DNA from: Staphylococcus phage vB_StaM_PB50
DNA: 64,000 nucleotides
Sequence record: OR770614.1
Reading direction: 5' to 3' (one strand)
Shown: positions 26,721 to 53,105 of the stretch, piece after piece
Layout of the letters: each line of letters opens with the position of its first letter
How positions within the stretch are numbered: position 1 is the first letter of the stretch
Program-made: the position numbers and the translations under genes
Notes under the pieces: model-generated
What the model saw: only the letters and a program-made list of their open reading frames with translations
What the model was told of the DNA's origin: nothing
The model's database searches: none

Positions 26721-27506
26721 TTATATATTATAAATCAAAAAATCTAAATTTGCTATAAATTTATCTTGAGAAATTGAAAATTTTAGTAAGATAAATTCAC
26801 TATATACATCTGTTTCCGGAGCAAAGATATCTACATGAACTTCAGGACAAACAATATTTCCTTTTGTCGTTTTATATTTTAATCCTAATAGATATTTCTT
26901 TGAAGTTCTGAAATCAATTAAATAATCATCTTCATCATAAATATAATACGGTTCTCTTACAAACATTTCATTTTCAGTAAATATACATTTAAAGAATTCA
27001 GAAGGTTTACATTCTTTAATATATAATAAAGATTTTTCATCTAAATTAAAAGAATAGAAAGGATCTGATTCTTTAAGAAATTTAATAGCATCCTCTGTAT
27101 AATTATATTCTTCATTGATATTCTCTTCAATATGATAATCTTTATCATCAATAATTGTTTCTAAATCAGATTCTCTAGTAAACTTAATACCTTTATTATC
27201 TTCATCATTAAAGAATTCTACTTTAATAATTTTATCAGCTTTATTAGTTCTAACTTGTATAAAATCTTCTACATTAAAGCTACAATATTCAATTGGAAGA
27301 AGATAATCATAAATTGGATTATCTTCTTTAATTTGTACATTAACATTATTAGGTATAGTCTCTAAATTAGAACCATTAGTAAATACATTATTTTTGAAAT
27401 CTATCAATTTATTTCCATTTTCAATATTATTAAATAATTTAGAAATTTCTTCAAAAGTCATGACTAATTTATTTACTATTTTACTTTCTTCAATTAAAAT
27501 ACTCAA
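26721..27506 (-). CDS. hypothetical protein
   Basis: 261-aa ORF. Confidence 0.5.
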   Translation of the reverse strand: MSILIEESKIVNKLVMTFEEISKLFNNIENGNKLIDFKNNVFTNGSNLETIPNNVNVQIKEDNPIYDYLLPIEYCSFNVEDFIQVRTNKADKIIKVEFFNDEDNKGIKFTRESDLETIIDDKDYHIEENINEEYNYTEDAIKFLKESDPFYSFNLDEKSLLYIKECKPSEFFKCIFTENEMFVREPYYIYDEDDYLIDFRTSKKYLLGLKYKTTKGNIVCPEVHVDIFAPETDVYSEFILLKFSISQDKFIANLDFLIYNI

Positions 27507-27509
27507 AGG

Positions 27510-30143
27510 TTAAGCTCCTTTACTTTTTATTTTATCAGATACTTTCTTAGCTGCAACATTCAATGGAGGTAAACCATGAAATTCTTGAGCAAATGCTACA
27601 CTATCTTGACTGTTAAATTTACTAATAAATTCAGTATTAAAGTCGTAATTTAATTTGTCTTCTTCATACTTAGGAACTGTCATTGTAGATTTATCTTGTA
27701 TTTGAATTTTACCTATATGTCCTTCAGGTGTTATATTATATGCTCTAATAATAGATGGATATAGAGCAGTCAAGTCAAAGTCACAAACATTACTAAATAA
27801 TCTATTAGATCTAATATCTCTACCTTTAACTAAAATATCACCCATACGTTCTATTAATGTCATATTAGCTACAAATCCACCACGTATTTTATCTGCGTTT
27901 GGATCAGATAGTATTTTAGAGTGATTATTACTTAATACATATCCTTGATTTTCAAAGAAGACAGAACTACGATTTCTTAAACAAATAGTTTTCTTAAGTG
28001 CTTTACTTGGTCTCGTTCTAGTCATATCTACAATAGAGAATAATAAATCAAACATATTAGTGTTCTTTTCTATTAAAGCAGTTAATACTGTATCTTTAAT
28101 ATTGTATAGAATAAATGTATAATAATCTCTAAAATGTAAATCAGAGATAGATCCTTCATATACATCCTTTTTAATACCAGTTTCTTTTTCACCAACATCA
28201 TTTAACTTAACTGATTCCATAACACCATTTGGTTTATTTACATTTGCATATAAAGCTAATTGGTCAATCCAGTTAGTGTATGAGTTAGTTTCGAATGTAG
28301 ATGATCTATTAGCTGCATCTGTAGCATTTTTATCTAATCTATAATAAGCTTTTTTATCTTGTAAATCTTTAGAACAGAAATAATCAGCTGGATCTTCTCC
28401 ATTAGCTCTGATTCTTTCAAATATAGCAGGAAAATCGTAATCAAGATTCCACTTTTATTTAAATAGACTGTATCTTATTTGTTATTTAAACAAATTTCCT
28501 TATTCAGTCGTTGAACGTATATTAATACGATGCTGATTAGTTTAAACACTTCCAGCAATTAAAGGAATTTTACACGACCTAGAATTTTGATTAAGCCGTA
28601 CATACATCAGGTTTACTAATTTCATTAATATAATATAAAAATGCTTTTATAATTTCCATTTCAGATTCTAATTCATATATTTCAAATTCTAATCCTAGAT
28701 TACCAATTTTACTATTTTCATTATTATAAATATTATTTAAATCTTCTAACAGTTTACTTTTATTTTCCATAGTTTCTTTATAAGTATCTGTATCATATTT
28801 TAAAGCAAATGTTAAACATTTACGTTTACTCCAGTCAACAGCAGTTATAATATTAACTTCAGCCTCTGCTTTTTCTGGTTCAGGGACATTTATATTAACT
28901 TTATACAATTGTATAAAGATTAGACTATATCTTTTAAATTCAAATATATTTCCATTTAAAATTTTTGTAAGTTTTACTATTTCTATAACCATTTGCAACT
29001 GCTTGTATTCCTTTTCTATCTATATTTAATTCTTCCGCTGCAAATTTAGCACTTTCATATTCTTTTATAATTTTATCTGTTTCTTTATCTATTTGTGCCA
29101 CTGGTTTTCTTCTCTTTTTTAATGATTCTTCCATTTTATCAGTTTTATGAAGATTATTTTCTATAGCATGTAAATTATTTTCTAATACTGACATCCATTC
29201 TAAATTAGATAAATTATTATTTAATTTATTACCGTCAATATGATTAACTACATTTTTATCAATATCTTTATTTTCGATAAAATTCTCTGCAACTAAACGG
29301 TGTATTCTTCTTGTATGCTTCTTATTATTTTTATATAATTGAACATCTTCATAACCATTTTTATTTATTCTTGTCTTTAATACTCTTTCTTTAATAAGCA
29401 TTCTTTTATCTTTACCTTTTAAAGAATCATTATATACATATCTTGAAACCGATTTAACTTTACCAGTATTGGATATTTTATAGTAATTTTCAAAATCTTT
29501 AATGTCTTTCCATATTTCTTTCATTATTTTCCTCCTTTTATAAAGGAAGTATATTTGAATTATATTATTATATTTAGTCGTTGAACACTAAATTAGTGAT
29601 GCTGATTATTTTTAAACTTTTCAGCAATTAATAATTTTTTAATTGAGCTACCTAAATTAACCCAACTGTTTGCGAAGAATCAACTTCTATATCAAAGAAA
29701 ACTATATCAATTCCAACTTTACTATCTAAGTTTTGTTTGATATACTCATTAATATTATAATCTTCAATATTAATATCAGATCCATGAACATTATTCATTA
29801 AATGAAAATCTTTTAATTTTCTAAACTCTTCATAATTACCTGAAGATAATATTCTATCGTATTCTGATTTATCTTGAGCATTACCTGCTTCTCTAACTAT
29901 AGATTTAATAACATCTTTATGTTTACAGTGTACAGTTCTAACTTTTTCTTTAGCCATAGAACCTACAACTATATTAGGTGGTAACCAATGTTCATCTTTA
30001 GTTACATAATAATGCATCATAGGATCTACTATTTCCATATGTTTCTTAGTTCCATCTTCTTCTTTGACTACCATTACTACTTTTTCTTTTTTATTAGATG
30101 TTTCTTTTTTATTCAAATATGTTGATTTTATAAAACGACCCAT
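27510..30143 (-). CDS. family-B DNA polymerase, N-terminal half (exonuclease motif I through polymerase motif A); three exons approx 30143-29660, 28898-28595, 28451-27510 separated by two group I introns
   Basis: Exo I: IVFFDIEVDSS. ESEMEIIKAFLYYINEISKPDV|WNLDYDFPAIFERI matches the E..LL..F...I....PDII.GYN..FD.PYL block. Motif A: CDFDLTALYPSIIRAYNITPE. The gene stops about 70 aa after motif A. Motifs B and C are in a separate gene at 49872-51988. Confidence 0.85.
28452..28594 (-). mobile_element. group I intron (ORF-less, about 143 nt) in polB-N
   Basis: On the minus strand: P TTAATTGCTGGAAGTG, Q AATCAGCATC, P6 GTATTAATATAC, R GTTCAACGACTGAAT, P8 AAATTTGTT..ACAAAT, S ATACAGTCTAT, then a G before the exon TGGAATCTT (WNLDY). 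R and S carry a compensatory pair (GACUG/CAGUC versus GACUA/UAGUC in the other copies). Confidence 0.7.
28899..29659 (-). mobile_element. group I intron carrying an HNH homing endonuclease ORF (inserted between R and S), in polB-N
   Basis: On the minus strand: exon ...GTTGGGT then intron TAATTTAGG..., P TAATTGCTGAAAAG, Q TAATCAGCATC, R GTTCAACGACTAAAT, then RBS AAAGGAGG and the HNH ORF; S AAGATATAGTCTAAT sits after the ORF (plus-strand 28909-28925), then P9 TATACAATTGTATA and a terminal G at 28899. Confidence 0.7.
28940..29524 (-). CDS. HNH homing endonuclease (intron-encoded; NUMOD4-like N-terminus, HNH core, IENR/NUMOD1-like C-terminal DNA-binding motif)
   Basis: NTGKVKSVSRYVY ... HTRRIHRLVAENFIENKD ... 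VVNHIDGNKLNNNLSNLEW and the C-terminal AAEELNIDRKGIQAVANG. Strong RBS AAAGGAGG is 8 nt upstream. Confidence 0.85.
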   Translation of the reverse strand: MKEIWKDIKDFENYYKISNTGKVKSVSRYVYNDSLKGKDKRMLIKERVLKTRINKNGYEDVQLYKNNKKHTRRIHRLVAENFIENKDIDKNVVNHIDGNKLNNNLSNLEWMSVLENNLHAIENNLHKTDKMEESLKKRRKPVAQIDKETDKIIKEYESAKFAAEELNIDRKGIQAVANGYRNSKTYKNFKWKYI

Positions 30144-30220
30144 AACTAAAAATTCCTCCTAATTCAAGTTATTTCATAATTGCTAGTTATTACAATTTTG
30201 TAAAAAATTAAAAATATAAT

Positions 30221-30262
30221 GCCAAACAACCTTATTAAAGTTGTTTGGCTTGTTTTATATTT
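30221..30262. terminator. hairpin GCCAAACAACCTTATTAAAGTTGTTTGGC with T/A-rich flanks on both strands
   Basis: 11-bp stem between polB-N start region and HTH gene end. Confidence 0.45.
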
Positions 30263-30308
30263 ATTTAGTCCAAATAAAAACTGTTTCTTTAGTAGTTTTT
30301 GATTCTTT

Positions 30309-30509
30309 TTAAATTTTCTCCTTTGATTTTAATTCTAAGTAATAATCATTTAACTTTTCACAAATATTTAAAGATAATCCACCTATTTCTCTTTTACCAT
30401 TCTTAAGTTTAGATATTTGTGATTGATCTACTTTTGTTTCTTTTGCAATTCTACTTCCATTTATATTACTTTTAAGTAATTTTTCTATATTATTTCTCAT
30501 CTCACTCAT
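30309..30509 (-). CDS. small XRE/Cro-like helix-turn-helix DNA-binding protein
   Basis: IAKETKVDQSQISKLKNGKR is the HTH_3 pattern. Confidence 0.6.
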   Translation of the reverse strand: MSEMRNNIEKLLKSNINGSRIAKETKVDQSQISKLKNGKREIGGLSLNICEKLNDYYLELKSKEKI

Positions 30510-30531
30510 ATATAAACTCCCATTCTATATT

Positions 30532-30693
30532 TTATAATAATTTATCTTCTTCATTATATACATATTTTTCTGTATCAACTGTGTCGATATCATCTTGCTG
30601 ATATCTAGTTCTTAAATGTTCAAAGAATAAGTTAAGTGGTAAAGCAATTGCAATAGTCATTAAAGTAGATATTAGTAGTCTTTTTTTATTCAT
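30532..30693 (-). CDS. small (53 aa) membrane-anchored hypothetical protein, not in the ORF track
   Basis: MNKKRLLISTLMTIAIALPLNLFFEHLRTRYQQDDIDTVDTEKYVYNEEDKLL has an N-terminal hydrophobic helix. Confidence 0.3.
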   Translation of the reverse strand: MNKKRLLISTLMTIAIALPLNLFFEHLRTRYQQDDIDTVDTEKYVYNEEDKLL

Positions 30694-30733
30694 TTTAAAA
30701 CATCCTTTTCAAATTTATTTAAATAAGTCTTGT

Positions 30734-33469
30734 TTAATTTAATTTAAATAACACATTCTTACCTTGCATTATTTCTTCATCATTAATATCAATCTTACTT
30801 TCATATCCTTTAAGTAAAATTAAATCAATATCAGAACTATAAAATTCATCATTATGACTAATTAAGAATACTTGTTCTAATCCCATTAATTCAATTTGTT
30901 TATCTATAACATCAACAAATCTTCTACGATTATTAGAGTCTAATGTTGCGTCCATCTCATCTAGGTAAAGAATATTATAATCTTGTGATACTTTATTTAA
31001 TAATGATAATGATAAACTAATATTAGTTAAAGCTGTTTCACCTTGAGAAGCTTCTTTAATGTCTTGTAATTCAGTTCCATTACCTTTATAAACATTAATA
31101 AAGAAATCCTTGTCAGTTAAATCAAAATCAATCTTGAATGAATTATTATAAGCTACTGAAAGAAGTTCATTAGTACTTACTGCAATATCTTTAAGGTAAT
31201 TAGTAATGAATATTAATGGTATAGAATCTTTTTTAGGGTTTAATGAATCGACTACTAATGAATATTTCCATAAAACTTTCTCAATATCATCAATCTTATT
31301 AATAATCGTATTTACTGTAAAGTATTTTTCTTTAGTAGATTCTAATTCATTTTTCTTCATAGTTAAATTATCTTTAATAGAATTAATCTTATTATCTGAT
31401 TGTTGATTAAGTTCATATAATCTACTTAATTTATTTAAATCTTTATCAACTTCATCAATCTTATATTGTTTATCTTTAATGTTAGATTTAATTTCATCAG
31501 ACTTCTCTGTTAAATTAATAAATTCATTAATAATGTCTAAAGTATTTTGTCCTTTATCTTTCTTTGCATTAAGTTCATTAAGATTCTCTAAGATATTATC
31601 TTTATTACTTTTAACTTCTTCAATCTGCTTTTCTAATTCAGCTTTATCTTCATTATATTGATTCATTAATTTTTGATTAGAATGATCTTCTTTAAACGCA
31701 TATCTTTTTCTTTCTAATTCTTTAGATAATTCATCTCTATTGCGTTCAGATGTTCTAATTTCATTAACATTATCTGATAATGATTTCAAGCTATTTTCTT
31801 CATTAGTAAATGAGCTATTATTAATAAATATTTCTTTAATATTATCCATAGTAATAATATCAAAACCTAAATATTCGTTTAATGAATCGACATCTTCTTT
31901 AATATAATTAAATTGATTTAATATATCGATATGATTAGAAAGAAGTTCATTATCATTTTCTAACTGATTATTTTCTTCATAAAGTTCATTAACTCTAGTT
32001 TCCAATTTATCAATTGAATCATATTCATTATCTTTAAAATCAACTACTAAAGGTACAAACACACATTCTTTATAATGTTCATGATCTTTTTGTTCTAATA
32101 TTTTAAGTAAATCTGATTTACCTTTAATTTGATTAAGACTTGTATTAAGTTCATTAGCTTCATTTAGGTTCATAGAAATTTTTTCTTTATTAGATTTAAT
32201 TTCAGTTTCAAAATCTCCATGAATATCATTATATTTAAATTTATTATCATTAACTAGACTCTTGAATTTATTAACTTTATTTAATAGATTATCTATATAT
32301 AAATTAAGCGTATTAACTTCAATGTCGTCTTTAATTTTAATATTAAAGTTATTGAAATAAGATCCTCTAGCAGCATCTATATCATTATCCAAATCAGTTA
32401 GATCATCTTTATATGATTGAAGAATTTCATCAATTTCCTGTGAAGCGTCATAATCTTCATTGAACTTAATAGCATTCATTCTAGATTCAATTTTAGATTT
32501 TCTACTAATTAAATCATCTAATTTATCTTGATTAGATTCTTTATCTTTTTTAGTTGATGTTAAATTTGTATGAACTTCATTAAGTATAGAAGATACTTTT
32601 TCTTTCTTTTCATTAGCAGATTCTAATGTATAATTATTTAAATTTTCATTAGATTCTTTTAACTTTCTTTCTTTTTCTAATTCAATTTCAAGTTCATGAA
32701 GTTCATTACTTAAATTTTCTTTTAATTGAGTTGGATGAATTTCATTATACTTTTCTTCCATAATAGAATTTAATTTAGTTTCATTAGAAGTCTTTTCTTT
32801 ATTAGCATTATCTAATTCATCCTGAATTTCATTAATTAGATTTTCTAGTACTTCTTTTTCTTTCTTAATTTCATCAAATTCTTTATATTTATCTAAATCA
32901 AATCTTAATGATTTAAGATCTTTATCAATAAGTCTTTTCTTTTCATTAGCTACTTTATAAGCTTCTAAATATTTATCAATATTAGGTACAAATTTATTAA
33001 TATATGTCTTACGATCACCAGTAGTATAATCAATAAAGTTAGAAACATTATCTCCTAATCTACCTACAGTGAAATATTCTTGAGATACGTCTAATTCTTT
33101 ATCAACTATTTCATTAAATAACTTAATACCACCATTCTCATTTAGCTCTTCACCATTCTTTTTAATAAATGATTTATTTTGAGAACTGTTTTTTCCATAA
33201 TGATGTTTAATCTCATATATGTCACTATTTTTAATATAATCGATTTCTTTAATTCCTTTTTCATCTTCAATAATATGATTTTTTCTTACATCATTAGAAC
33301 CTCTGTATGGACTTAATTGAGATATAATCGCTGATTTTCCAGATCCATTATCTCCAAGAAGCATTATCATATTATTTTTACTTTTACTGAAGTCTATTTC
33401 AATTTCTTTTAATCCTGTTCCAGCATATATACCTATAAAATTCTTTAACTTTAATCTTTTAATTTTCAT
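30734..33469 (-). CDS. SbcC/Rad50-like ATPase (recombination/repair; ABC-type head plus long coiled coil)
   Basis: Walker A MLLGDNGSGKSA at the N-terminus; about 600 aa of coiled coil; C-terminal signature EASQGETAL, Walker B ILYLDEMDATLD, and LISHNDEF. Confidence 0.75.
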   Translation of the reverse strand: MKIKRLKLKNFIGIYAGTGLKEIEIDFSKSKNNMIMLLGDNGSGKSAIISQLSPYRGSNDVRKNHIIEDEKGIKEIDYIKNSDIYEIKHHYGKNSSQNKSFIKKNGEELNENGGIKLFNEIVDKELDVSQEYFTVGRLGDNVSNFIDYTTGDRKTYINKFVPNIDKYLEAYKVANEKKRLIDKDLKSLRFDLDKYKEFDEIKKEKEVLENLINEIQDELDNANKEKTSNETKLNSIMEEKYNEIHPTQLKENLSNELHELEIELEKERKLKESNENLNNYTLESANEKKEKVSSILNEVHTNLTSTKKDKESNQDKLDDLISRKSKIESRMNAIKFNEDYDASQEIDEILQSYKDDLTDLDNDIDAARGSYFNNFNIKIKDDIEVNTLNLYIDNLLNKVNKFKSLVNDNKFKYNDIHGDFETEIKSNKEKISMNLNEANELNTSLNQIKGKSDLLKILEQKDHEHYKECVFVPLVVDFKDNEYDSIDKLETRVNELYEENNQLENDNELLSNHIDILNQFNYIKEDVDSLNEYLGFDIITMDNIKEIFINNSSFTNEENSLKSLSDNVNEIRTSERNRDELSKELERKRYAFKEDHSNQKLMNQYNEDKAELEKQIEEVKSNKDNILENLNELNAKKDKGQNTLDIINEFINLTEKSDEIKSNIKDKQYKIDEVDKDLNKLSRLYELNQQSDNKINSIKDNLTMKKNELESTKEKYFTVNTIINKIDDIEKVLWKYSLVVDSLNPKKDSIPLIFITNYLKDIAVSTNELLSVAYNNSFKIDFDLTDKDFFINVYKGNGTELQDIKEASQGETALTNISLSLSLLNKVSQDYNILYLDEMDATLDSNNRRRFVDVIDKQIELMGLEQVFLISHNDEFYSSDIDLILLKGYESKIDINDEEIMQGKNVLFKLN

Positions 33470-33526: not shown

Positions 33527-34387
33527 TTATTTAAAATTATCCCTTACTTTATATTTAGCTATAATCTTTTCATCATTAATTTTCTCAAATGTATCTGTTT
33601 CATCTATATAACTGAATAATTCTATATATTCATCTTTAATATCTTCTTCTTTTATTTTTAAATCTTCTTTGCTAAATTCTAAAAAATATTTTTCATTTAA
33701 ATAAAAATTTATATTAAGATGGTTAGTTATTTTATTCAATAATATTAGTATTTCACTATTTATATTTAGAAGAACTTTATACATCATATGATGACCTAGA
33801 TTTTTTTTCTTTAAAGCATTATATAATTGAATTGGATCTTCTTCAGGTATAAATTTATTTATTTCAAATACCAATGTATTATTTTCTCCTTTAAACTCAA
33901 ATACATTTCCACATATTTTATTAAATAATTTTTTGTCTAATTCAGTTCCAAGATTTGAAATATTCAATTCTAAACTAAGATCAATACCATTTTTAAGTAC
34001 ATAAATATCATTATCGTCTTTATCTTTATATTTACCTTTTTCATGAAATTTAACATCTGAATTTAAATTTATACTAAAATTATTTAATATTTTTGAATTG
34101 TCTATACTATAAGATAAAAAAGGTAGAAATGACATCATATCTAGATTAACTCCTTTAATATGTCTTGGTTCCTCTTTAAAAATATTAAAAAGCATAAAAG
34201 GGGATTTATCAGGGTTTCTATTTTCTTTATTTGAGAATTGTAAATTTGATAATATATGACTTAAAGTATTAATTTCTGGAGTTATAAAATTCTTTATACC
34301 TATATCCGATAAATCTTCAATTTCATTTTCAACTGTGTACATTTTGTCTTCTAATTTATATAGATAATAATCTTTATTTTTATCCAA
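33527..34387 (-). CDS. member of the paralogous KYLVKxNFK-tail family (unknown function)
   Basis: N-terminus MDKNKDYYLYKLEDKMYTVENEIEDL; C-terminus FEKINDEKIIAKYKVRDNFK. Confidence 0.6.
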   Translation of the reverse strand: MDKNKDYYLYKLEDKMYTVENEIEDLSDIGIKNFITPEINTLSHILSNLQFSNKENRNPDKSPFMLFNIFKEEPRHIKGVNLDMMSFLPFLSYSIDNSKILNNFSINLNSDVKFHEKGKYKDKDDNDIYVLKNGIDLSLELNISNLGTELDKKLFNKICGNVFEFKGENNTLVFEINKFIPEEDPIQLYNALKKKNLGHHMMYKVLLNINSEILILLNKITNHLNINFYLNEKYFLEFSKEDLKIKEEDIKDEYIELFSYIDETDTFEKINDEKIIAKYKVRDNFK

Positions 34388-34401
34388 CGAAAAATCCTCC
34401 T

Positions 34402-35133
34402 TTATTTAAAATTTTCTCTTACTAAATACTTCTCAATAGTTTCTTTATCAGTTATTTCCTTAAATATTCTACCAGAATCAAAATTTTTAAGAAATTCAAT
34501 TTCTTTATTATCGAATTTACTATAGTCTTCTAAATTTTTAGTTCCAATTATAGATGCAAAAGAAACTTCTTTTATTAAGAATTCTAAATCAAAATGTTTA
34601 GACATTGCATGTAAAACATTGATAATTGCACCATTCATATCAGATAAAGTAAACACCATATCATTATTATTTTTAAGATTTTCATTTTCAAGATCTGAAA
34701 TGAAAATATCATAATCACTTATTACCGGTAAATACTCCATTTTTATTGAATTATTTTTGTCTAAGATATCTCCAGATACAGATCTAAAGAATGGATTATA
34801 AACAGTAGGATAAACTCCAGTATTAAATACTAAAGTTAAGTAGCTGGTATCATTTTTATTTATTTCAAATCTTCCAGCAATATCGATATAATCAATTGAT
34901 TCTTCATTTTTACTTTTTATTGAATAATATAATCTAGGAAATATATTATGAAAATCTATAGTACAAGATTTTTTATCTTTTTCATAGCTGGACCATTCAT
35001 AGGAATCAGTTTTAACTTGTAAACTAGCAAGCAAATAATTGAAAAATATTTCATTATTTGTTTGCTCTGAATTTATATTATCTATTTCAATTAATCTTTC
35101 ACTTAGTTTTGTTACAAAATATTTTTTACCCAT
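34402..35133 (-). CDS. member of the KYLVKxNFK-tail family
   Basis: N-terminus MGKKYFVTKLSERLIEIDNI; C-terminus IFKEITDKETIEKYLVRENFK. Confidence 0.6.
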   Translation of the reverse strand: MGKKYFVTKLSERLIEIDNINSEQTNNEIFFNYLLASLQVKTDSYEWSSYEKDKKSCTIDFHNIFPRLYYSIKSKNEESIDYIDIAGRFEINKNDTSYLTLVFNTGVYPTVYNPFFRSVSGDILDKNNSIKMEYLPVISDYDIFISDLENENLKNNNDMVFTLSDMNGAIINVLHAMSKHFDLEFLIKEVSFASIIGTKNLEDYSKFDNKEIEFLKNFDSGRIFKEITDKETIEKYLVRENFK

Positions 35134-35149
35134 ATTAAATTTCTCCTTT

Positions 35150-35932
35150 TTATTTAAAATTATTTTTCACTAAATATTTTTTAATAATCTTTTCATCTTT
35201 AATCTCTTCAAATACTCCAGATATTTTATACTCGTCAAATAAATTATAGTATTCATCATCTATATCAACATTATCTCTTTTATCATTCTCTGGTATGTGC
35301 GAGAAACAACCATCTGATACAAAAAATTCTATATCAAAATGATCTCTAATTTGTGATAAAATTTCCAATATAGAACTATTTACTTCAACTAATATTTGGT
35401 ATAAATCTTTATTATTTCTAAAATTATTCTCTGTACCACTATTAAAATCTGATATTAAATCTTCCATGCTATTTATATGAAATCTAAAAGGCACTTTTAA
35501 AGAATTGGATTCATCTAATATATTGCCAATAACGCTATTAAAAATTATTGAATTTATACCTGAAGAGTATGGATTTTCAATTCTAACTTTTAAATAGTTC
35601 TTATTTTCTATTGATTCGTTGAAAATAATATCAAAATCAATAATAAGTATATTCGTTGTCTTTTTATTATTAACATTATATTTGATAACTGGAAAAATAT
35701 ATCCAGCCGATATAATCCCTGACCATAAATTCTCTCCATTATCATCTTTATCAACAATCTCTTCAGAAGATATAGTTATTTCTTCATTACTTTTTACTTG
35801 TAAATTAGAAAGTAATTGAGGTAGATATAAATAATCTTCACTTATATTATATTTGTATAAATTAGTAACTTCAAATAAATCATCTGTCATTTTACTTAAA
35901 AAATATTTTTTATGACTTTTATTTATACTCAT
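35150..35932 (-). CDS. member of the KYLVKxNFK-tail family
   Basis: N-terminus ...HKKYFLSKMTDDLFEVTN; C-terminus VFEEIKDEKIIKKYLVKNNFK. Confidence 0.6.
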   Translation of the reverse strand: MSINKSHKKYFLSKMTDDLFEVTNLYKYNISEDYLYLPQLLSNLQVKSNEEITISSEEIVDKDDNGENLWSGIISAGYIFPVIKYNVNNKKTTNILIIDFDIIFNESIENKNYLKVRIENPYSSGINSIIFNSVIGNILDESNSLKVPFRFHINSMEDLISDFNSGTENNFRNNKDLYQILVEVNSSILEILSQIRDHFDIEFFVSDGCFSHIPENDKRDNVDIDDEYYNLFDEYKISGVFEEIKDEKIIKKYLVKNNFK

Positions 35933-36741
35933 TATGAAAATCCTTTCTTGACTTTAAAATTTTTAATATCTTTTTCATCTGTTAATTCTTTAAATAAATC
36001 ATTTTCATCACTTTCTATTAGATGTAATAAATTAATTAAACTGCCACCCTTACTGGAGAAACTAATATAAAATTCTATATCATCTTTATACATATATTTA
36101 ATCTCATAAAGAGACATTAATACACTAAGATTATTCTGATATAATATTATAAAGAATAAATCCTTAAAATCTTCTATAAATTTAATAATAGGATTTTTCT
36201 CAAATGCCGATATTGAAAAACTTAAATCCATAAATGATTCATTATTATATTTGATCTCGTATAAACTCTTTTCAAATAATTCAATATTTACAAGAGATCT
36301 CATTTTTTCATTTATTCCTTCATTAACTAAATTATTTTCATTTACTAAACCATTAGTAATTGTATTGAAATATTCTTTATATAATGAATTATCAAAATGA
36401 AAATCTAATTTAAATTCTCCAGTTTCAATTTTATCCATTCTACCAGTATTGAAATTAATATGAAAATTAGTATTAAATCTTTTAAAAGCATCATTTTTAT
36501 TATGTTTGTCTATAAAATAAATATCATTATCAATTTCTTTATAATGAAAATTCATATAATCTTCTTCTTTAGAAATATTATTTATGAAAGATTTAGCGTA
36601 TCCTTTACTACTTAAAATATTATTAATATCCATAGTGGTTAATACATATGCAATATATTCATATCGGTTAAGATAATTTCTATCAATTTCAATTAATTCA
36701 TCTCTTTCTTTATCTATAAAATATTTTGTATTATTTTTCAT
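35932..36741 (-). CDS. member of the KYLVKxNFK-tail family (start moved to the internal ATG at 36741)
   Basis: N-terminus MKNNTKYFIDKERDELIEIDRNY; C-terminus LFKELTDEKDIKNFKVKKGFS. The ORF-track start at 36789 would overlap the upstream gene by 47 nt. Confidence 0.55.
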   Translation of the reverse strand: MKNNTKYFIDKERDELIEIDRNYLNRYEYIAYVLTTMDINNILSSKGYAKSFINNISKEEDYMNFHYKEIDNDIYFIDKHNKNDAFKRFNTNFHINFNTGRMDKIETGEFKLDFHFDNSLYKEYFNTITNGLVNENNLVNEGINEKMRSLVNIELFEKSLYEIKYNNESFMDLSFSISAFEKNPIIKFIEDFKDLFFIILYQNNLSVLMSLYEIKYMYKDDIEFYISFSSKGGSLINLLHLIESDENDLFKELTDEKDIKNFKVKKGFS

Positions 36742-36742
36742 A

Positions 36743-37522
36743 TTAGGAAAATCCTTTCTTGACTTTAAATTTTTTAATCTCTTTCTCATCAGTTATTTCT
36801 CTAAAATATGCATCAGCGTCAAAATCATTTAAACTGATATACTTATCATATTCTTTTTCAAAACTAAAACCTTTTTCTTTTACCTTTTCCTTAACGCTAA
36901 AATCCCAATCCGGTGCAATAAGAAATTCAATATCTGAATGGTCTTGTATCTGATCTAGTAATTCAAAGATTAATTTATTTGTATCATTAAATATTTTATA
37001 TAAATCATCTTTGAGTTCTACAGCTCTTTTTCCTTTTTGTATATGACTTTTATAATATTTTAAAAATCGAGATATAATTTCTTCATTAAAGCTATGATGT
37101 AAATATAGTTCGCCATCATCATCAAATATACCAGATCTTTTACTAAATAATCTTTTACCTATCTTACTATTATTATATACAGGGAAAGCTCTAATCTTAA
37201 TATAGTTATCGTCTTCTTCTTTTAAACTAAAACGTATTGTAGCGTAAAAGAGAAGTTCCATTTTATTTTTTTTACCCTTATATTTATATTTTACGGTAGG
37301 GAAAGCATCAAAAAATAATCTAACACCAAATAAGCCATCATTATCATCATATTCTTCATGAGTTATGAAAAATCTTTCATTATACTTTAACTGCATTTCA
37401 GCGAATAATTTGCTTAAAACTTTCCATTTAAAGTCAAAATAGTTTGTTTCATTTTCATTGAAACTTAATTCCATAAATTCTTCTCTCAATTTACTAATAT
37501 AATATTTATTAATTTTCTCCAT
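36743..37522 (-). CDS. member of the KYLVKxNFK-tail family
   Basis: N-terminus MEKINKYYISKLREEFMELSFN; C-terminus YFREITDEKEIKKFKVKKGFS. Confidence 0.6.
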   Translation of the reverse strand: MEKINKYYISKLREEFMELSFNENETNYFDFKWKVLSKLFAEMQLKYNERFFITHEEYDDNDGLFGVRLFFDAFPTVKYKYKGKKNKMELLFYATIRFSLKEEDDNYIKIRAFPVYNNSKIGKRLFSKRSGIFDDDGELYLHHSFNEEIISRFLKYYKSHIQKGKRAVELKDDLYKIFNDTNKLIFELLDQIQDHSDIEFLIAPDWDFSVKEKVKEKGFSFEKEYDKYISLNDFDADAYFREITDEKEIKKFKVKKGFS

Positions 37523-42828: not shown

Positions 42829-43530
42829 TTATTTAAATTCTTCTTTAATTAAGTAATTTTTAATTTCTTCCTCATCAGTAATTTCTTCAGCAATAAATTC
42901 CAAATTCCATCTTAGATAATCCATAAAATACATATACGAATTGTCGATCTTAATTCTAAGGTCCTTTAATATATAATATATCAATTCATCTAGAGAATCA
43001 TAAACGTCATTATTCTTATCAGACAAATAATCTTGTTTGAAACTAACTTTAAAATGTACTTCATTTTTATCCATTGTACAAGAAGATATTTTATATTTAT
43101 CACTTTTATATTTATCTAGCATACGAATTATTTTCTTAGCCTTTTTTGTATTTAAAACAATTTGAAATATATTTTCATAAATTCCATCATTATCTGTATT
43201 AGAATCAGAGAAACAAACAATTGAAGATGAAATATTTCTTTCTTTATTTTCATTACTCTTAATTATTATATCTTCGTCTACTCCAATTAAATTTTTAAAA
43301 TTTATAATAATATCTGAATGTGTATAAAAATGAAAATTCAGTTGTTTATTAATTAAATAAGAGTTTCCATTGGTTGTAACGGGTTGGTCTTCATAATTAT
43401 AATATGGGTAAAAATTACTTTTTATCTGTTTCATGACTTTATAAAGAAATCTACCATTATTAATTTCATCTTTAGATAAAATAAATTTATTACCATTTTC
43501 TAGATTTTTATACAATTTAATATTTTCCAT
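42829..43530 (-). CDS. member of the KYLVKxNFK-tail family
   Basis: N-terminus MENIKLYKNLENGNKFILSKDE; C-terminus IAEEITDEEEIKNYLIKEEFK. Confidence 0.6.
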   Translation of the reverse strand: MENIKLYKNLENGNKFILSKDEINNGRFLYKVMKQIKSNFYPYYNYEDQPVTTNGNSYLINKQLNFHFYTHSDIIINFKNLIGVDEDIIIKSNENKERNISSSIVCFSDSNTDNDGIYENIFQIVLNTKKAKKIIRMLDKYKSDKYKISSCTMDKNEVHFKVSFKQDYLSDKNNDVYDSLDELIYYILKDLRIKIDNSYMYFMDYLRWNLEFIAEEITDEEEIKNYLIKEEFK

Positions 43531-43545
43531 TTAAAATTTCTCCTT

Positions 43546-44028
43546 TTATTTAAAAAGATTTCTAATTTTAAAATCTTTTACTTCTTTACAATCTTCTGAT
43601 AATATTTTAAATATGTCTTCATTATCAAAATTAAATTCTTTTAATAATATATTATAATTTAATAAAGGTATATCTATTGCATTACACATTCTTTTATATA
43701 ATATATAGTAAAGATCTTCTGAAGAATCAGATGAGACAAGATTTTGATTCTTTAAATCTACTAATTTAGGTGCAAAAGGATTATTATTATCATATTTCAT
43801 ATGTGTAACTAAAAATAATCTAGATGAGTCATAATTTAATTGGAAGTTTAATTCTTTATGTCCTTTATCTTTATCAAATAAATCAATTTTTTTACCCACT
43901 GATTCATATAATTCCATTCTTTCTTTTTTAAATTCATTACCAAACACATAACAAAAAGCATCATCTTTTCTATGAATATCATTAACTTCGTATATTTCAC
44001 CATTTACTTTATTTTTGTAATATATCAT
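43546..44028 (-). CDS. member of the KYLVKxNFK-tail family (short subtype; C-terminus KDFKIRNLFK)
   Basis: N-terminal 35 aa near-identical to 42327-42818 at both DNA and protein level. Confidence 0.6.
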   Translation of the reverse strand: MIYYKNKVNGEIYEVNDIHRKDDAFCYVFGNEFKKERMELYESVGKKIDLFDKDKGHKELNFQLNYDSSRLFLVTHMKYDNNNPFAPKLVDLKNQNLVSSDSSEDLYYILYKRMCNAIDIPLLNYNILLKEFNFDNEDIFKILSEDCKEVKDFKIRNLFK

Positions 44029-44045
44029 TATCTATTTCAACTCCA

Positions 44046-44666
44046 TTATTTAAAATTTTCTTTAATTAAATATTTCTTAATCTTATCAATATCTTTTTCT
44101 TCATTATTTTCTAATTCATTTATATTCCTACCATTTAATAACAAATCATAACCTTTATCATTAAATTTTCTTTCTAAATCGTATAAGTATCTAATTACAA
44201 TATCAGAATATTTTAAATGAAAATCATTTTTATCATAATTAAAAATAGAAATTGTTACATTATTGATTTCTTTATCATCTACTATTAAATTTATATAATC
44301 AACATCTGATATAAGTTTTTTATATCTATCACTTTCTATTTGTTTTTCTTCATTATCATAAAACAATCTTATGCCACTTGTATATTCATTTAACTCATTT
44401 TCTTGTTTTTCAGAAAAAATATCTATTGACAAACTAAATTGAAATTTTATATTTTCACATATCAATTCAAGATTATCAAGAGAAATATTTATATCTAATC
44501 TCTCTAGACCTAAATTTAGAAAATTATCTTCCTTGATACGATCTACATCAATATGCAACATTCCTATCAAGTCTGTAATATTTCCTTTAATTTTATCTTT
44601 ATAGATTTGCATTAATCTATCATCCATTTTAAAATACCTATAATCATTAATATTCAAAATAATCAC
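44046..44666 (-). CDS. member of the KYLVKxNFK-tail family
   Basis: N-terminus MIILNINDYRYFKMDDRLMQIYKD; C-terminus DKIKKYLIKENFK. RBS AAAGGAGAAG. Confidence 0.6.
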   Translation of the reverse strand: MIILNINDYRYFKMDDRLMQIYKDKIKGNITDLIGMLHIDVDRIKEDNFLNLGLERLDINISLDNLELICENIKFQFSLSIDIFSEKQENELNEYTSGIRLFYDNEEKQIESDRYKKLISDVDYINLIVDDKEINNVTISIFNYDKNDFHLKYSDIVIRYLYDLERKFNDKGYDLLLNGRNINELENNEEKDIDKIKKYLIKENFK

Positions 44667-49871: not shown

Positions 49872-51988
49872 CTAAAATTTAACCATATTTGATACGAAAG
49901 AACTATTAGAAGATTCTAACACTTTAACTCCAATAGATTCAATAATATCTTTACCCGGTTTAATGTGATCTTCTATCATTGAATCATAATCAATAAAAGG
50001 TCTAAATTCTTCAGGAATTGTATTACCTTCAACTGCAATTACATTCATTCCATTTTTAACTAATCTTTCGTTTCTAAACACTTCTCTAAATTTATCTAAT
50101 AATTCTTCATCATCAACTTTATCCTTAATATCTCCAAATGATTTAATATTTAATTTGACCATTAAGATATTTGCTGGGAGAGATATTTCTTTATCTGGAT
50201 ACATTAAATTCCATGATAAAGCTGCTCTATAATTCATTTGTGTATAAGGATCTTTATATACTTCTGCATTATTAGCTTTACCAGGTTTTAAGAATTCAAT
50301 ATCACCATTCTCTAATGATTTTTTAATCATCTCTTCAATTTCTTTATATTTACGTATAATTCCAATTCTATCAATACCAGTTTTATTTTCTAAAATATCT
50401 TTTTGTAATATTTCAGTAAATAATTCTCTGATACGTTTATTAGTATTAACTTTTCTAATAGCCATACCTTTAACATCTAAATCTGGAGGTTTAATTAAAT
50501 TACCTTCTTGTTGAATTACTGATGATGCATAAGTTTTCTTTTTATCTGTCGTTAATTGTTTGTCTAATAAAAATTCATTTTTCATTGATATTAACCCTAA
50601 ATGTTCATCTTCTAATCCTAAATCTTTACAGAATCTATGATAAGATAATTCTAGTAATTTAGTAATTTGATAGTTAATAATAGATATATTACCTACACGT
50701 TGTTCTAGTTTATCTTCTAAACCATTTTCTGCAATAGGGAAATCTTCAGGTTTCTTTTCTTTCATTTTTTGATATAATGGATCTAAATGTACGAAGTTAC
50801 TATCTGTCTTTAATATTATATTTTTAAATATAAAATAGACTATATCATATACTCTTTATAAGTATCATTATATTTAGTCGTTGAACAATCATTCTAATTG
50901 ATGCTGATTAATTTAATAAATATTTTCTCAGCAATTAATAATGTGAAACAACTTAAATTACTTTAAGCAGCGACCATGTTATCATAATCGATTGTAAGTA
51001 CACTTCTACGTTTTTTATAATTCATTCTATACATTCTATTGTAATCTTGATAATTATAAATAACCCAATCTTCTAATATATCAAATAATTCATCTAATAA
51101 TGGAATCATATCTTCAGGTGGTTCGTTCGGATCTAAGAAATCTTCTCGTCCAGTCATTTTACTAATTTTATTATCAAATATATCTGTATGATCTAATAAA
51201 CCATAAAGATTATTTTTAAAATAAACTTTGTTTTTCTCATCTTGAGTTAAATTACTAAAGAATTCTTTTAAATCATTTTCCTCATCTTCAGAGAAATTAT
51301 ATTCTACGTTATCCAATAAACCTTTTAATATTTCATTATCAGTAGGAACTGAATTTATCTTAATATCATGATCTTTATATTCTTCTTGACAAATTCTTGC
51401 AATATAATTATAAATTTCACTAATATTCATAAAGAATATTTTACTACCTATAAATCTTTCTAAAGCTATTGCTGAAGTCGTAACAATATCGACACCACTA
51501 TATGTGATAGCTGGACCTGAATAAGGATCATAGAAAATACTATTCCCTTGTATCATAGCACCGTAGTAACTATTAGCCAAAATCTTAATTGTTTTTTGCT
51601 CATTCATGTATTTATGATATTTGACATCATCTACACCTTTACTTATAAACATATTATGTTTAGCTACTTTACGTGAGTCAATGAAGTCTTTTAACATCTC
51701 TGCATTTAAATTTTTTCTTTGTGATTGTGGTTGATAAATCGAACCTGACCCAGTTACTATTAAATTTGAATTAATAACTGTACGTAATAAAGAATCAACA
51801 TTCATTTCTTGACCTGATACTTCTGTCATGACAGGTTTAACATTTTCTTTTACAAACTCTCTACATTCTTTTAATATTTCTTCTTTATCAAAATCCGGAT
51901 TATTCTTTTGAACCATCCATACCAATTGTTCTAAATAACCAGTTAAAGCTCTTTTTCTTTCTTCTTTATTCTTTAATTCTGTTGTCAT
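49872..51988 (-). CDS. family-B DNA polymerase, C-terminal half (motif B, motif C region, thumb); two exons approx 51988-50966 and 50807-49872 separated by one group I intron; separately translated from the N-terminal half
   Basis: Own RBS TAGGAGGTTAG 10 nt before ATG 51988. Motif B KILANSYYGAM with downstream AITYSGVDIVTTSAIALERFI. Across the intron, ...VLTIDYD...|TDSNFVHLDPLY is a motif C-like junction (YGDTDS context). The exact splice junction is not resolved. Confidence 0.8.
50808..50965 (-). mobile_element. group I intron (ORF-less, about 158 nt) in polB-C at the motif C region
   Basis: On the minus strand: ...ATGGTCGCTGCT then TAAAGTAATTTAAG (hairpin), P TTAATTGCTGAGAAAAT, Q TTAATCAGCATC, R GTTCAACGACTAAAT, P8 ATACTTATAAAGAGTAT, S GATATAGTCTATT, P9 TTATATTTAAAAATATAA, ...TATTAAAG then exon ACAGATAGT. 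Confidence 0.7.
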
Positions 51989-52448: not shown

Positions 52449-53105
52449 TTATTTAAAATTTTTATTTATTTTATATTTTTTAACTTCACTTTCAGAAAGC
52501 TCTTCAATTATATTATTCTTTCTGCTGTTAAATACATTTTCAATCTCTTGTAAATAAAATATATTACTGTCTTCTACTTTTCCATTTTTAAATAAAGATA
52601 GATTGAATGAATATATATCTCCTAAAATGAATTTAATTTTGTTTAAAATAGAATAAACTAATTTTTCAAAATCATCTTTATCTATATGAATTTTGACATT
52701 ATTATCCGAATATTCTATATGAAACTCTTCATTTAAATCTATTAAAGCTACTTTAGTTGCATATAGATCATAATATACACCTAAATCTAATTTCAATCCA
52801 ATATCAGAAAAATTCTCAACAAATAATATAGAAATAAAATTATTATTATCAATATCACTTGAAAATACTAATGACATGGGGTTTTTATCTAAACTATTTG
52901 AAATAAAATCTTTGATTAAAATTTTAAAATATAAGAAAAAGCTGATTTTATCATTTAATTTAAACACATTATTTTTTCTTAAATTTACATCTTTAGAAAA
53001 ATTGAAATTCAAATAATTAATTTTTAATCTATAATAAAAAGAATCATCATTGAATCTCAATAAATTTGTATAGTGGTTTATTAATTCATCTTTAAATTTC
53101 TTCAT
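52449..53105 (-). CDS. outlying member of the KYLVKxNFK-tail family
   Basis: C-terminus LSESEVKKYKINKNFK; N-terminus MKKFKDELINHYTNLLRFNDD. Confidence 0.5.
   Translation of the reverse strand: MKKFKDELINHYTNLLRFNDDSFYYRLKINYLNFNFSKDVNLRKNNVFKLNDKISFFLYFKILIKDFISNSLDKNPMSLVFSSDIDNNNFISILFVENFSDIGLKLDLGVYYDLYATKVALIDLNEEFHIEYSDNNVKIHIDKDDFEKLVYSILNKIKFILGDIYSFNLSLFKNGKVEDSNIFYLQEIENVFNSRKNNIIEELSESEVKKYKINKNFK

Follow-up and report, generated by a model that had tools for sequence, protein, structure and literature searches.

We found that a 773-nt segment of the window (the whole 64,000-nt stretch of DNA from Staphylococcus phage vB_StaM_PB50, record OR770614.1, that was analyzed), at 29659..28887 on the minus strand, is very likely a mobile group I intron; the gene that it interrupts, in a Staphylococcus jumbo phage of the Machias/PB50 type, encodes the polB exonuclease domain. 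This family B DNA polymerase gene occupies 30143..27510 on the minus strand and contains two group I introns, and the elongation part of the polymerase is encoded by a separate gene at 51988..49872. The initial annotation, made from the sequence of the window, had described a group I intron with an I-HmuI-like HNH gene between the R and S blocks. This description held and can be made more precise, with the open reading frame (ORF) located in the P8 loop, and the P, Q, R and S blocks, the ribosome binding site (RBS), the 194-aa ORF and the P9 hairpin on which it was built were all present on the minus strand (Table 1).

Table 1 Features of the polB exonuclease-domain gene and of its endonuclease-bearing intron
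Feature	Coordinates	Strand	Sequence or description
Exon 1	29660..30143	minus	From ORF list, alignment to intron-less S6 gene and spliced translation; ends ...FFDIEVDSSQTVG plus U
Last 8 nt of exon 1 (P1 5' strand)	29667..29660		AGUUGGGU
Intron 1 (group I, 773 nt)	28887..29659	minus	Ribozyme, about 170 nt; P8 loop, 603 nt, with the ORF
Internal guide region	29641..29656	minus	GCUCAAUU (29648..29641), base-paired to the end of exon 1; U29660·G29648 wobble
P10 strand	29656..29649		UUUAGGUA; can pair with exon 2 UCCCUGAA (read by eye from sequence)
Catalytic core, 5' part	29564..29639	minus
P3 5' strand; P3 3' strand	29635..29631; 29571..29567
P block	29622-29629	minus	AATTGCTG
P4	29626..29622 with 29604..29600		Followed by a short P5
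Q block	29598-29607	minus	AATCAGCATC
P6 hairpin	29598..29586
R block	29572-29586	minus	GTTCAACGACTAAAT
R/P7 5' strand	29579..29575
P8 5' strand	29551..29561	minus	AAUUCAAAUAU; perfect 11-bp complement of 28947..28937
RBS hairpin	29531..29549	minus	CUUCCUUU-AUA-AAAGGAGG; buries the Shine-Dalgarno of the endonuclease ORF
RBS	29531-29538	minus	AAAGGAGG; 6 nt upstream of the ATG
HNH homing endonuclease ORF	28940..29524	minus	194 aa; NUMOD4, HNH, C-terminal helix-turn-helix-like region
P8 3' strand	28937..28947	minus	AUAUUUGAAUU
Catalytic core, 3' part	28887..28933	minus
S block	28919-28933	minus	AAGATATAGTCTAAT
S/P7 3' strand	28927..28923	minus
P9 hairpin	28918..28899	minus
Intron tail	After P9, to terminal G at 28887		UUAAUAUAAAUG
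Exon 2	28594..28886	minus	Starts UC CCU GAA (F-P-E-P-E-K-A-E-A-E-V...)
Intron 2 (142-nt mini group I intron, no ORF)	28452..28593	minus	ACGGCU/...AAAAG/UGGAAU
Exon 3	27510..28451	minus	WNLDYDFPAIF ... motif A DFDLTALYPS ... stop

The boundaries of intron 1 were evident from the comparison with intron-less alleles of related phages that the initial annotation had proposed. The insert was exactly missing from S6, MarsHill, SA1 and Madawaska, which read ...GG(C/A/T) TTC CCA... without interruption (CAAGTAACAGGCTTCCCAGATCCTGAAAA in S6 and MarsHill), while the five intron-carrying alleles (window, Machias, AH12, LY01 and PALS_2) read GGGT/intron...G/TCCC. In the four intron-less alleles and in RB69 gp43, G-F-P-(D/E)-P spans the junction. 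Excision of exactly 773 nt, at 29660/29659 and 28887/28886, restores the frame and the GFPEP segment found in S6, MarsHill and RB69, and leaves G28887 as the terminal G of a group I intron; the predicted ligated junction is ...CAGUUGGGU/UCCCUGAACC..., and that across intron 2 is ...GUACGGCU/UGGAAUCU.... Allele comparison, spliced translation and RB69 alignment agreed with the 5' end previously placed at 29659, and they moved the 3' end, previously placed 12 nt too early at 28899, to G28887/T28886. A 3' site at G28899 would add four residues (NINV) missing from all intron-less homologues and from RB69, would fall inside the P9 stem at its final paired base, and would disregard a tail (...UAAUAUAAAUG) that is conserved in an intron of a different gene. 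Exon 2 begins with TCCCTGAA (F-P-E-P-E) rather than with FNINVPEPE as previously read, and exon 1 does not end at ...DSS but continues through SSQTVG plus one U (T29660). An exact-sequence look-up of the spliced Machias and window proteins, with either junction, found no entry.

The spliced polB product is 572 aa long, compared to 573 aa in S6, and the exact splice junctions allow the annotation of this polymerase subunit to be corrected. It aligned with RB69 gp43 (residues 107-338 and 404-436, E=7.6e-11) across FDIEV, GFPEP and DLTSLYPSII, and it carries Exo I (DIE), the later exonuclease motifs and then motif A, as expected of a family B polymerase. Intron 1 sits 10 residues past Exo I, in keeping with its earlier placement in the exonuclease domain. 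Pfam gave no match for the entire spliced protein at E<=0.01 and a weak DNA_pol_B match for exon 3 by itself.

We examined the predicted fold of the intron RNA by pairing, folding energy and covariation. The end of exon 1 (AGUUGGGU) pairs with the internal guide GCUCAAUU and places a U·G pair at the 5' splice site; the exon/intron P1 fragment folded at -7.6 kcal/mol (z -3.4), and a single compensatory change, U-A to C-G, was seen in P1 of LY01 and PALS_2. Across 12 related mini-introns, 98.1% of the cells at 22 pairs in P3, P4, P6 and P7 could pair and 11 pairs were changed on both sides, a level reached by none of 500 shuffles, and slid controls were 27-55% paired. The helices P3 and P6 covaried strongly, and P4 and most of P7 were invariant, which makes covariation uninformative for both. 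P5, P8 and P9 were out of register in the MAFFT alignment and were excluded from the pair count, being judged by individual sequences and folds. The P8 and P9 hairpins had a different sequence in every copy of the family, the 11-bp P8 stem formed when the whole intron was folded to minimum energy, and the P1, P9 and RBS hairpins outfolded shuffled sequences. The P8 stem and the RBS hairpin were identical in the sole other copy (Machias) and are thus without covariation support. The tail after P9 contains the sequence YUAAUAUAAAUG, which is common to intron 1 and an intron at an unrelated site (1379-1522), and most copies of the family end in ...AAUG.

Eight copies of this very AT-rich intron family were present in the window, the ORF-less members being about 125-154 nt in length. 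Covariance-model hits also supported intron 1 as a group I intron. The R block occurred eight times exactly and, with up to three mismatches, 13 times compared to 3.9 expected (none of 100 shuffles reached 13). The P4 and P7 core blocks of the family (AATTGCTG...ATCAGCA...GTTCAACGACT...GATATAGTC) were found, identical, in at least 120 IMG/VR stretches and are shared with ordinary phage IA2 introns and RF00028. In contrast to ordinary phage IA2 introns, the family has a reduced core without P2, P7.1/P7.2 or any P9 extension. Rfam gave no group I match in the whole window at the gathering score, and only chance miRNA and snoRNA matches in 27000-31000 at E<=10; RF00028 scored no member of the window family, including intron 1, even at E<=10. 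Two ordinary relatives with the same P4-P7 core (L009 and L011), used as a positive control, reached 83 bits on RF00028. The RF00028 miss is a limit of the model, which expects a larger intron and misses ORF-bearing as well as mini forms, and not counter-evidence to the intron. Escape of the whole mini-intron family from Rfam implies that such introns are probably under-annotated in AT-rich jumbo phages. Because the core is without the peripheral helices that stabilize IA2 introns, unaided self-splicing is uncertain. The 205-nt Azoarcus intron is the customary small benchmark for group I; if spliced unaided, the family would rank with the smallest group I ribozymes in nature, and if not, a splicing factor must come from the phage or the host.

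The product of the ORF in intron 1 was identical to WPH64324.1 (vB_StaM_PB50) and 99.5% identical to Machias QQO92523.1. The Pfam search proposed with the initial HNH call bore that call out, with NUMOD4 (56.3 bits, cut-off 23.4) and HNH_3 (35.5 bits, cut-off 24.8) both above threshold; C-terminal matches to I-HmuI_NUMOD-like (23.6 bits, cut-off 27) and NUMOD1 (18.3 bits, cut-off 22.8) were weak and each fell below it. Residues 5-191 matched I-HmuI (PDB 1U3E, E=3.2e-23), with the C-terminus aligning to I-HmuI residues 120-170. H95, N104 and N116 aligned with H75, the N87 region and N96 of I-HmuI, which we take to include the catalytic His and conserved Asn of 1U3E. The motif VNHIDGNK..NN..NLEW..EN fits the norm of the family, in which 47 of 54 relatives have an N preceding the catalytic His.

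Two features of the RNA suggest a control on this ORF. The RBS lies in an 8-bp hairpin of -7.5 kcal/mol (z -2.8; 2 of 200 shuffles were as stable) that also formed in the full-length fold, and the last codons of the ORF and its UGA stop fall within the P8 3' strand. With the RBS sequestered and the stop codon in P8, any one transcript could probably either be translated for the ORF or fold into the ribozyme but not both, and the RBS hairpin would have a regulatory role. A broader reading, in which the reduced family interrupts essential polymerase catalytic motifs and the HNH copy is a minimal core that tolerates a 603-nt insert in L8 with translation and splicing coupled, is one we offer tentatively, as a possibility short of an even chance.

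From the anatomy of the element, the pre-mRNA is predicted to fold to the reduced core, comprising P1 with U·G at the 5' splice site, P3, P4, a short P5 and P6-P9. An external guanosine would attack after U29660 and the freed exon 1 would attack after the terminal G28887, giving the ligated product GGG-UUC-CCU and restoring the conserved G-F-P-E-P segment. By analogy with I-HmuI, the enzyme would nick a co-infecting relative's intron-less polB close to the point of insertion, and recombinational repair would copy the intron and a short flanking exon stretch into the nicked allele.

The distribution of the intron was consistent with such mobility. Overall, the window and phage Machias share 95.6% identity. 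Intron 1 is identical at 769/773 positions (99.5%), three of the four differences lying in the ORF and being synonymous; in exon 1, 471/484 positions match, and in exon 2 250/287 (87%), with a 6-nt indel in addition. Intron 1 was patchily present across nine phages. Together, the intron identity of 99.5% against 87% in exon 2 and the patchy presence argue for recent homing of intron 1, as judged from these sequence comparisons. The exon flanks are identical for 16 nt upstream and 12 nt downstream and overlap the pairing partners of P1 and P10, and this identity may mirror RNA constraint instead of co-conversion. Among the nine phages, one polB site was empty, held a mini-intron, held a mini-intron whose P8 carries an HNH gene, or held a large intron whose P6 carries one; these four states form a natural series for studying how an endonuclease gene and a ribozyme are combined.

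The initial annotation had offered two origins for this copy, as the master of the intron family or as a secondary recipient of the endonuclease gene, and the latter is better supported, the former unsupported, because the AH12 intron has no ORF and HNH relatives lie in P6 loops. In AH12 the same intron occupies the same site with a short, closed P8, and its shared parts are 88/91 and 46/47 identical; the nearest non-identical HNH relatives (43% identity) are in the P6 loop of different, larger introns. In IMG/VR, no relative of the HNH protein exceeded 50% identity, and among the 80 best relatives there was none with R upstream and S downstream. Most likely, the ORF was acquired by a pre-existing mini-intron that had none. 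We consider it very unlikely that the HNH-carrying intron is the active source or mobilizer of the ORF-less copies in this genome, although it is the sole ORF-bearing member among the eight and the P4 and P7 core blocks are near-identical in all of them. The seven other copies occupy unrelated sites (RNA polymerase beta and beta', polB elongation subunit), and an HNH homing enzyme recognizes one DNA target and thus cannot mobilize them; P3, P6, P8 and P9 are so divergent, differing at nearly every position among copies, that the copies must be old and not recent offspring. The ORF-less AH12 intron counts against a master copy as well, as do the HNH relatives, which are mostly free-standing or within other intron types. 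Loss of the ORF is a doubtful alternative that nonetheless carries some weight: an ancestral intron at site 1 would have had the HNH gene in P8, and AH12 (perhaps also LY01) would have deleted it. Homing endonuclease genes are expected to degenerate and then vanish after fixation, and the shared parts of the AH12 intron are otherwise 96-98% identical, both of which fit such a loss. However, the AH12 P8 (AUCA-CUGAUAU-UGAU) has nothing in common with the 11-bp P8 stem and contains no ORF remnant, and P8 is a short closed hairpin in all other family members, which leaves gain of the ORF by a mini-intron as the preferred origin.

If there were no splicing, the polB fragments would be translated separately with the HNH gene as a free-standing endonuclease between them, an arrangement recalling AR9-like phages, which do have a family B polymerase split into separate genes, and agreeing with the failure of Rfam to find an intron. 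We give this virtually no credence, as exon 2 has no in-frame start codon or RBS (the first listed start is a TTG within the HNH ORF), the flanks of the ORF together make up an entire group I core that shows compensatory changes, with U·G at the 5' site and G as the final intron base, and exact removal of 773 nt gives the GFPEP of intron-less alleles and RB69. An intein or a separate-subunit reading was rejected on the same evidence. A further proposal, that the endonuclease is mainly a weapon against co-infecting intron-less relatives or a splicing helper for the reduced ribozyme, is unlikely in our estimation, and it is compatible with a mobile intron and not opposed to it. The jumbo phage PhiPA3 gains a competitive edge over PhiKZ from an intron-encoded endonuclease (PMC12908238), and S6, MarsHill and SA1, which are intron-less relatives, infect the same hosts. 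The helper role would suit a ribozyme without stabilizing peripheral helices, but the seven sibling mini-introns manage without an ORF, which argues against the need for a cis-acting maturase.

Since SPO1, phage DNA polymerase genes have been known to harbor group I introns with endonuclease genes, and the element described here is already annotated in Machias and PB50 and holds little new biology. Machias (MW349128, CPT_Machias_137/138) carries the element at this very site; its annotation gives a 'DNA polymerase exonuclease domain protein' in three exons, with an 'HNH homing endonuclease' inside, and introns in its DNA polymerase subunits were reported (Korn et al., bioRxiv 10.1101/2020.12.14.422802 / J Virol 2021). 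The exon junctions there were predicted by protein alignment only, and RNA structure was not described. At site 2 the two phages differ, Machias carrying a different, endonuclease-carrying intron of about 1.09 kb and the window the 142-nt mini-intron.

Among better-characterized systems, I-HmuI and I-HmuII of SPO1 and SP82, which are nicking enzymes (PMC3428280), appear to share the protein architecture of the ORF product in full-length alignment. As in the window, their HNH genes reside in group I introns that interrupt phage DNA polymerase genes, and the phage DNA is modified (non-thymine). The SPO1 and SP82 introns are full-size and occupy a different position, in a family A (Pol I-type) polymerase, whereas here a ribozyme of about 170 nt lies in a T4/RB69-like family B polymerase gene. 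The ORF product has modest sequence identity to I-HmuI, and its nicking activity is predicted by homology. I-BasI (Bastille), I-PfoP3I (Pf-WMP3) and I-TwoI (Twort nrdE) are HNH nicking enzymes in phage group I introns (PMC3428280; reference list of PMC12908238); their host genes also serve DNA metabolism, at genes or sites other than that in the window. The Pf-WMP3 intron is of type IA2 with P7.1/P7.2 and an ORF that begins in P6a (PMC3428280), whereas the intron in the window has its ORF in L8 and lacks P7.1/P7.2. The closest non-identical relatives, AR9_g271 HNH (from the intron of the AR9 non-virion RNA polymerase beta' gene) and PALS_2 HNH, come from the same jumbo-phage clade, and the PALS_2 intron is inserted at exactly the polB site 1 of the window. 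Both ORFs sit in a P6 loop, in larger introns with the core GTTCAACGACTATC... followed by P7.1/P7.2-type helices, so that ribozyme and ORF are combined independently.

An HNH-bearing group I intron is present in the gene for the DNA polymerase exonuclease domain (polB), as the initial annotation had correctly read it, although two corrections apply, one to its 3' splice site and one to the origin of its ORF. In the phages S6, MarsHill, SA1 and Madawaska polB was uninterrupted (...CAA GTA ACA GGC TTC CCA GAT CCT..., Q V T G F P D P), whereas the window, Machias, AH12, LY01 and PALS_2 carried an insert at the same point, in all five as GGGT/insert...G/TCCC, and the intron therefore spans 29659..28887. 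These junctions confirmed the 5' limit of 29659 and moved the 3' splice site from 28899 to 28887. G28899, considered as the intron end, closes the P9 stem and would add NINV, found in no homologue. The 12-nt tail UUAAUAUAAAUG has a counterpart, CUAAUAUAAAUG, closing the RNA polymerase gene intron at 1379-1522 and is therefore intron rather than exon. Exon ligation yields GGG-UUC-CCU-GAA-CCA (G-F-P-E-P), and RB69 gp43 has GFPEP at the aligned position.

The exon 1 ORF, read from 30143 (-), ended ...VGIDIVFFDIEVDSSQTVG before an in-frame TAG just within the insert; no plus-strand ORF of at least 40 aa in the ORF list overlapped the region. The spliced product (572 aa) matched RB69 gp43 in the exonuclease domain (residues 107-338) and motif A (404-436) with E=7.6e-11, and the remaining polymerase part is a separate gene, 51988..49872. 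Over 27000-31000 the window shared 95.6% identity with Machias, a Staphylococcus jumbo phage whose copy of the gene bears the annotation 'DNA polymerase exonuclease domain protein', with three exons and an enclosed 'HNH homing endonuclease'. Korn et al. predicted DNA polymerase subunit introns in Machias, MarsHill and Madawaska via protein alignment. Since Machias and PB50 both carry annotation for the identical element, it is already known.

Coordinates of the polB introns, their parts and the related mini-introns
Feature	Coordinates	Strand	Sequence, context or source
Intron 1, 773 nt	29659..28887	-	junctions of intron-less and intron-bearing alleles
Guide (pairs with exon 1 end)	29648..29641	-	GCUCAAUU
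P block	29629..29622	-	AATTGCTG
Q block	29607..29598	-	AATCAGCATC
R block	29586..29572	-	GTTCAACGACTAAAT
P8 stem	29561..29551 with 28947..28937	-
Shine-Dalgarno/RBS	29538..29531	-	AAAGGAGG
HNH ORF, 194 aa	29524..28940	-	ORF list
S block	28933..28919	-	AAGATATAGTCTAAT
P9 hairpin	28918..28899	-	CTTTATACAATTGTATAAAG
Intron 2, group I, 142 nt, no ORF	28452-28593	-	polB, T-A/W-N just before Exo II region
Mini-intron	776-916	+	RNA polymerase beta (Rpb2_6) gene
Mini-intron	1379-1522	+	RNA polymerase beta (Rpb2_6) gene
Mini-intron	44813-44942	-	beta'-like gene, one of three copies that split SRYPI/ENF, DFDG/DM and NES/VQA
Mini-intron	45088-45214	-	beta'-like gene, DFDG/DM
Mini-intron	45439-45583	-	beta'-like gene, one of the same three copies
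Mini-intron	50804-50946	-	polB elongation subunit, motif C split as TID/TDS

The blocks, RBS, ORF and hairpin listed in the initial annotation were all present on the minus strand. The R block had eight exact occurrences in the window; allowing up to three mismatches raised the count to 13, well beyond chance, since 3.9 were expected and 0 of 100 shuffles came as high. The eight copies of the window were aligned over the core with four more, taken from AH12, LY01 and Madawaska, and pairs were counted in P3, P4, P6 and P7 only, written as a pseudoknot. In this 12-copy alignment 98.1% of cells in these helices were paired compared with 80.5% in shuffles, 11 pairs showed changes on both sides, and the covariation score was 0.459 versus 0.117, with every measure out of reach of all 500 shuffles; sliding the 3' partner reduced pairing to 27-55%. 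Covariation resided in P3 and P6, P4 was invariant and P7 nearly so (one G-C for A-U), and the P8 and P9 hairpins were unrelated in sequence from copy to copy. The end of exon 1, AGUUGGGU, pairs with the guide to form P1 (fold, -7.6 kcal/mol, z -3.4). U29660·G29648 marks the cleavage site, and a U-A pair of this helix has become C-G in LY01 and PALS_2, a compensatory change. By eye, UUUAGGUA, the 8 nt directly 5' of the guide, can pair with exon 2 UCCCUGAA at 7 of 8 positions as P10. P8 of intron 1 is a perfect 11-bp stem closing a 603-nt loop, and when all 773 nt were folded, the minimum-energy structure contained P4, P8, the RBS hairpin and P9.

A covariance model from the core alignment matched exactly these eight copies in the window and nothing further. 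The Rfam model RF00028 matched no window-family intron even at E<=10, and two ordinary viral introns with the same P4-P7 blocks reached 83 bits. The family is a reduced group I form without P2, P7.1/P7.2 and P9 extensions, and this reduced ribozyme family, invisible to Rfam, is the sole aspect with some potential for novelty. At least 120 stretches of viral contigs (IMG/VR, L009-L128) contained the exact core pattern AATTGCTG...ATCAGCA...GTTCAACGACT; among the matches listed, the majority were GC-richer IA2-type introns with an R-S distance of 55-60 nt, and reduced window-like forms appeared in a few AT-rich contigs (L018, L026, L027, L068, L091).

The protein encoded by the ORF matched WPH64324.1 ('HNH homing endonuclease [Staphylococcus phage vB_StaM_PB50]') without a difference, which makes PB50 the very probable source of the window. 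Pfam bore out the HNH assignment (NUMOD4, 56.3 bits; HNH_3, 35.5 bits; both above cut-offs), and I-HmuI (PDB 1U3E) matched residues 5-191 with E=3.2e-23. For the proposed C-terminal NUMOD1/IENR-like motif, the I-HmuI_NUMOD-like and NUMOD1 matches were weak and below the Pfam cut-off. The motif VNHIDGNKLNNNLSNLEW...ENN is the subfamily norm, and 47 of 54 viral relatives have N in front of the catalytic His. Nothing in the sequence suggests decay of the ORF; the window and Machias introns differed at 4 nt, all in the ORF, three of them synonymous. The Shine-Dalgarno was fully paired within an 8-bp hairpin (-7.5 kcal/mol, z -2.8), and the final codons and UGA stop sit in the P8 3' strand. T4 intron endonuclease genes are a model for translation held back on the unspliced precursor. 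By analogy, translation of this ORF may be repressed on the unspliced precursor, and translation and ribozyme folding would be mutually exclusive.

Nicking HNH enzymes of phage group I introns include I-HmuI/II, I-BasI, I-PfoP3I and I-TwoI (PMC3428280). The window element probably shares the working mode of these systems in SPO1/SP82 (I-HmuI/II), Bastille (I-BasI), Pf-WMP3 (I-PfoP3I) and Twort (I-TwoI), but differs in its host gene, a T4-like family B rather than Pol I-type polymerase, in its small ribozyme and in the location of the ORF in L8, the P8 loop. In jumbo phages, an intron endonuclease was shown to act when co-infecting phages compete (PMC12908238), and such a role could apply here.

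Across nine phages, site 1, that of intron 1, occurred in four states: empty (S6, MarsHill, SA1, Madawaska); an ORF-less mini-intron (AH12, ~154 nt; LY01, ~142 nt); the same mini-intron carrying an HNH gene in P8 (window, Machias); and, in PALS_2, a different intron of ~1 kb whose P6 loop holds another HNH. Repeated homing combined with independent ORF invasion would be expected to produce this pattern. The AH12 and window introns were identical at 88/91 and 46/47 positions in their shared parts, and AH12 P8 is a short hairpin unrelated to that of the window. The AH12 intron is ORF-less, the closest non-identical HNH proteins (43% identity) are encoded by larger introns of AR9 and PALS_2, within the P6 loop, and an arrangement with R upstream and S downstream was absent from all of the best 80 IMG/VR relatives. 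The favoured origin, one of two initially proposed, is therefore that a mini-intron without an ORF acquired it secondarily; ORF loss in AH12 is possible. The other proposed origin, with the HNH-bearing copy as master of the intron family, was not supported, since the insertion sites of the other seven copies are unrelated and would not be cut by a site-specific enzyme, and these copies differ from it throughout the variable helices.

Compared with Machias, intron 1 was identical at 769/773 positions and exon 1 at 471/484, with exon 1, exon 3 and the intron at 97-99.5% identity; exon 2 (28594-28886) was identical at 250/287 (87%), with a 6-nt indel and EKAEAEV versus GMAEI. The divergence of exon 2 beside the intron indicates a local recombination mosaic. 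Next to the intron, the exons were identical for no more than 16 nt on the upstream side and 12 nt on the downstream side, which could be a short co-conversion tract or a P1/P10 pairing constraint.

At site 2, that of intron 2, the Machias intron is unrelated, ~1.09 kb long and encodes a 253-aa homing endonuclease. A mini-intron of LY01 and Madawaska lies 7 nt downstream of window site 2. The six further mini-introns of the family scored 95-109 bits with the covariance model, and none contained an ORF. For that at 45088-45214 (-), GADFDG/DMISIRSLW is restored, as in intron-less S6, only if the 5' exon ends in C (GAUGGC/AAAAUU, ~45215); this C faces A of the guide ACCAUCA, giving C·A at the cleavage site, where a U·G wobble is near-universal. 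The same sequence is present in Machias (99.7% identity). Paralogous ORFs of ~200-290 aa (33527-36789, 42829-44666, 52449-53105, -) share a similar C-terminal motif, ...KYLV/IKxNFK, and look like a multi-copy gene family flanking the polymerase genes.
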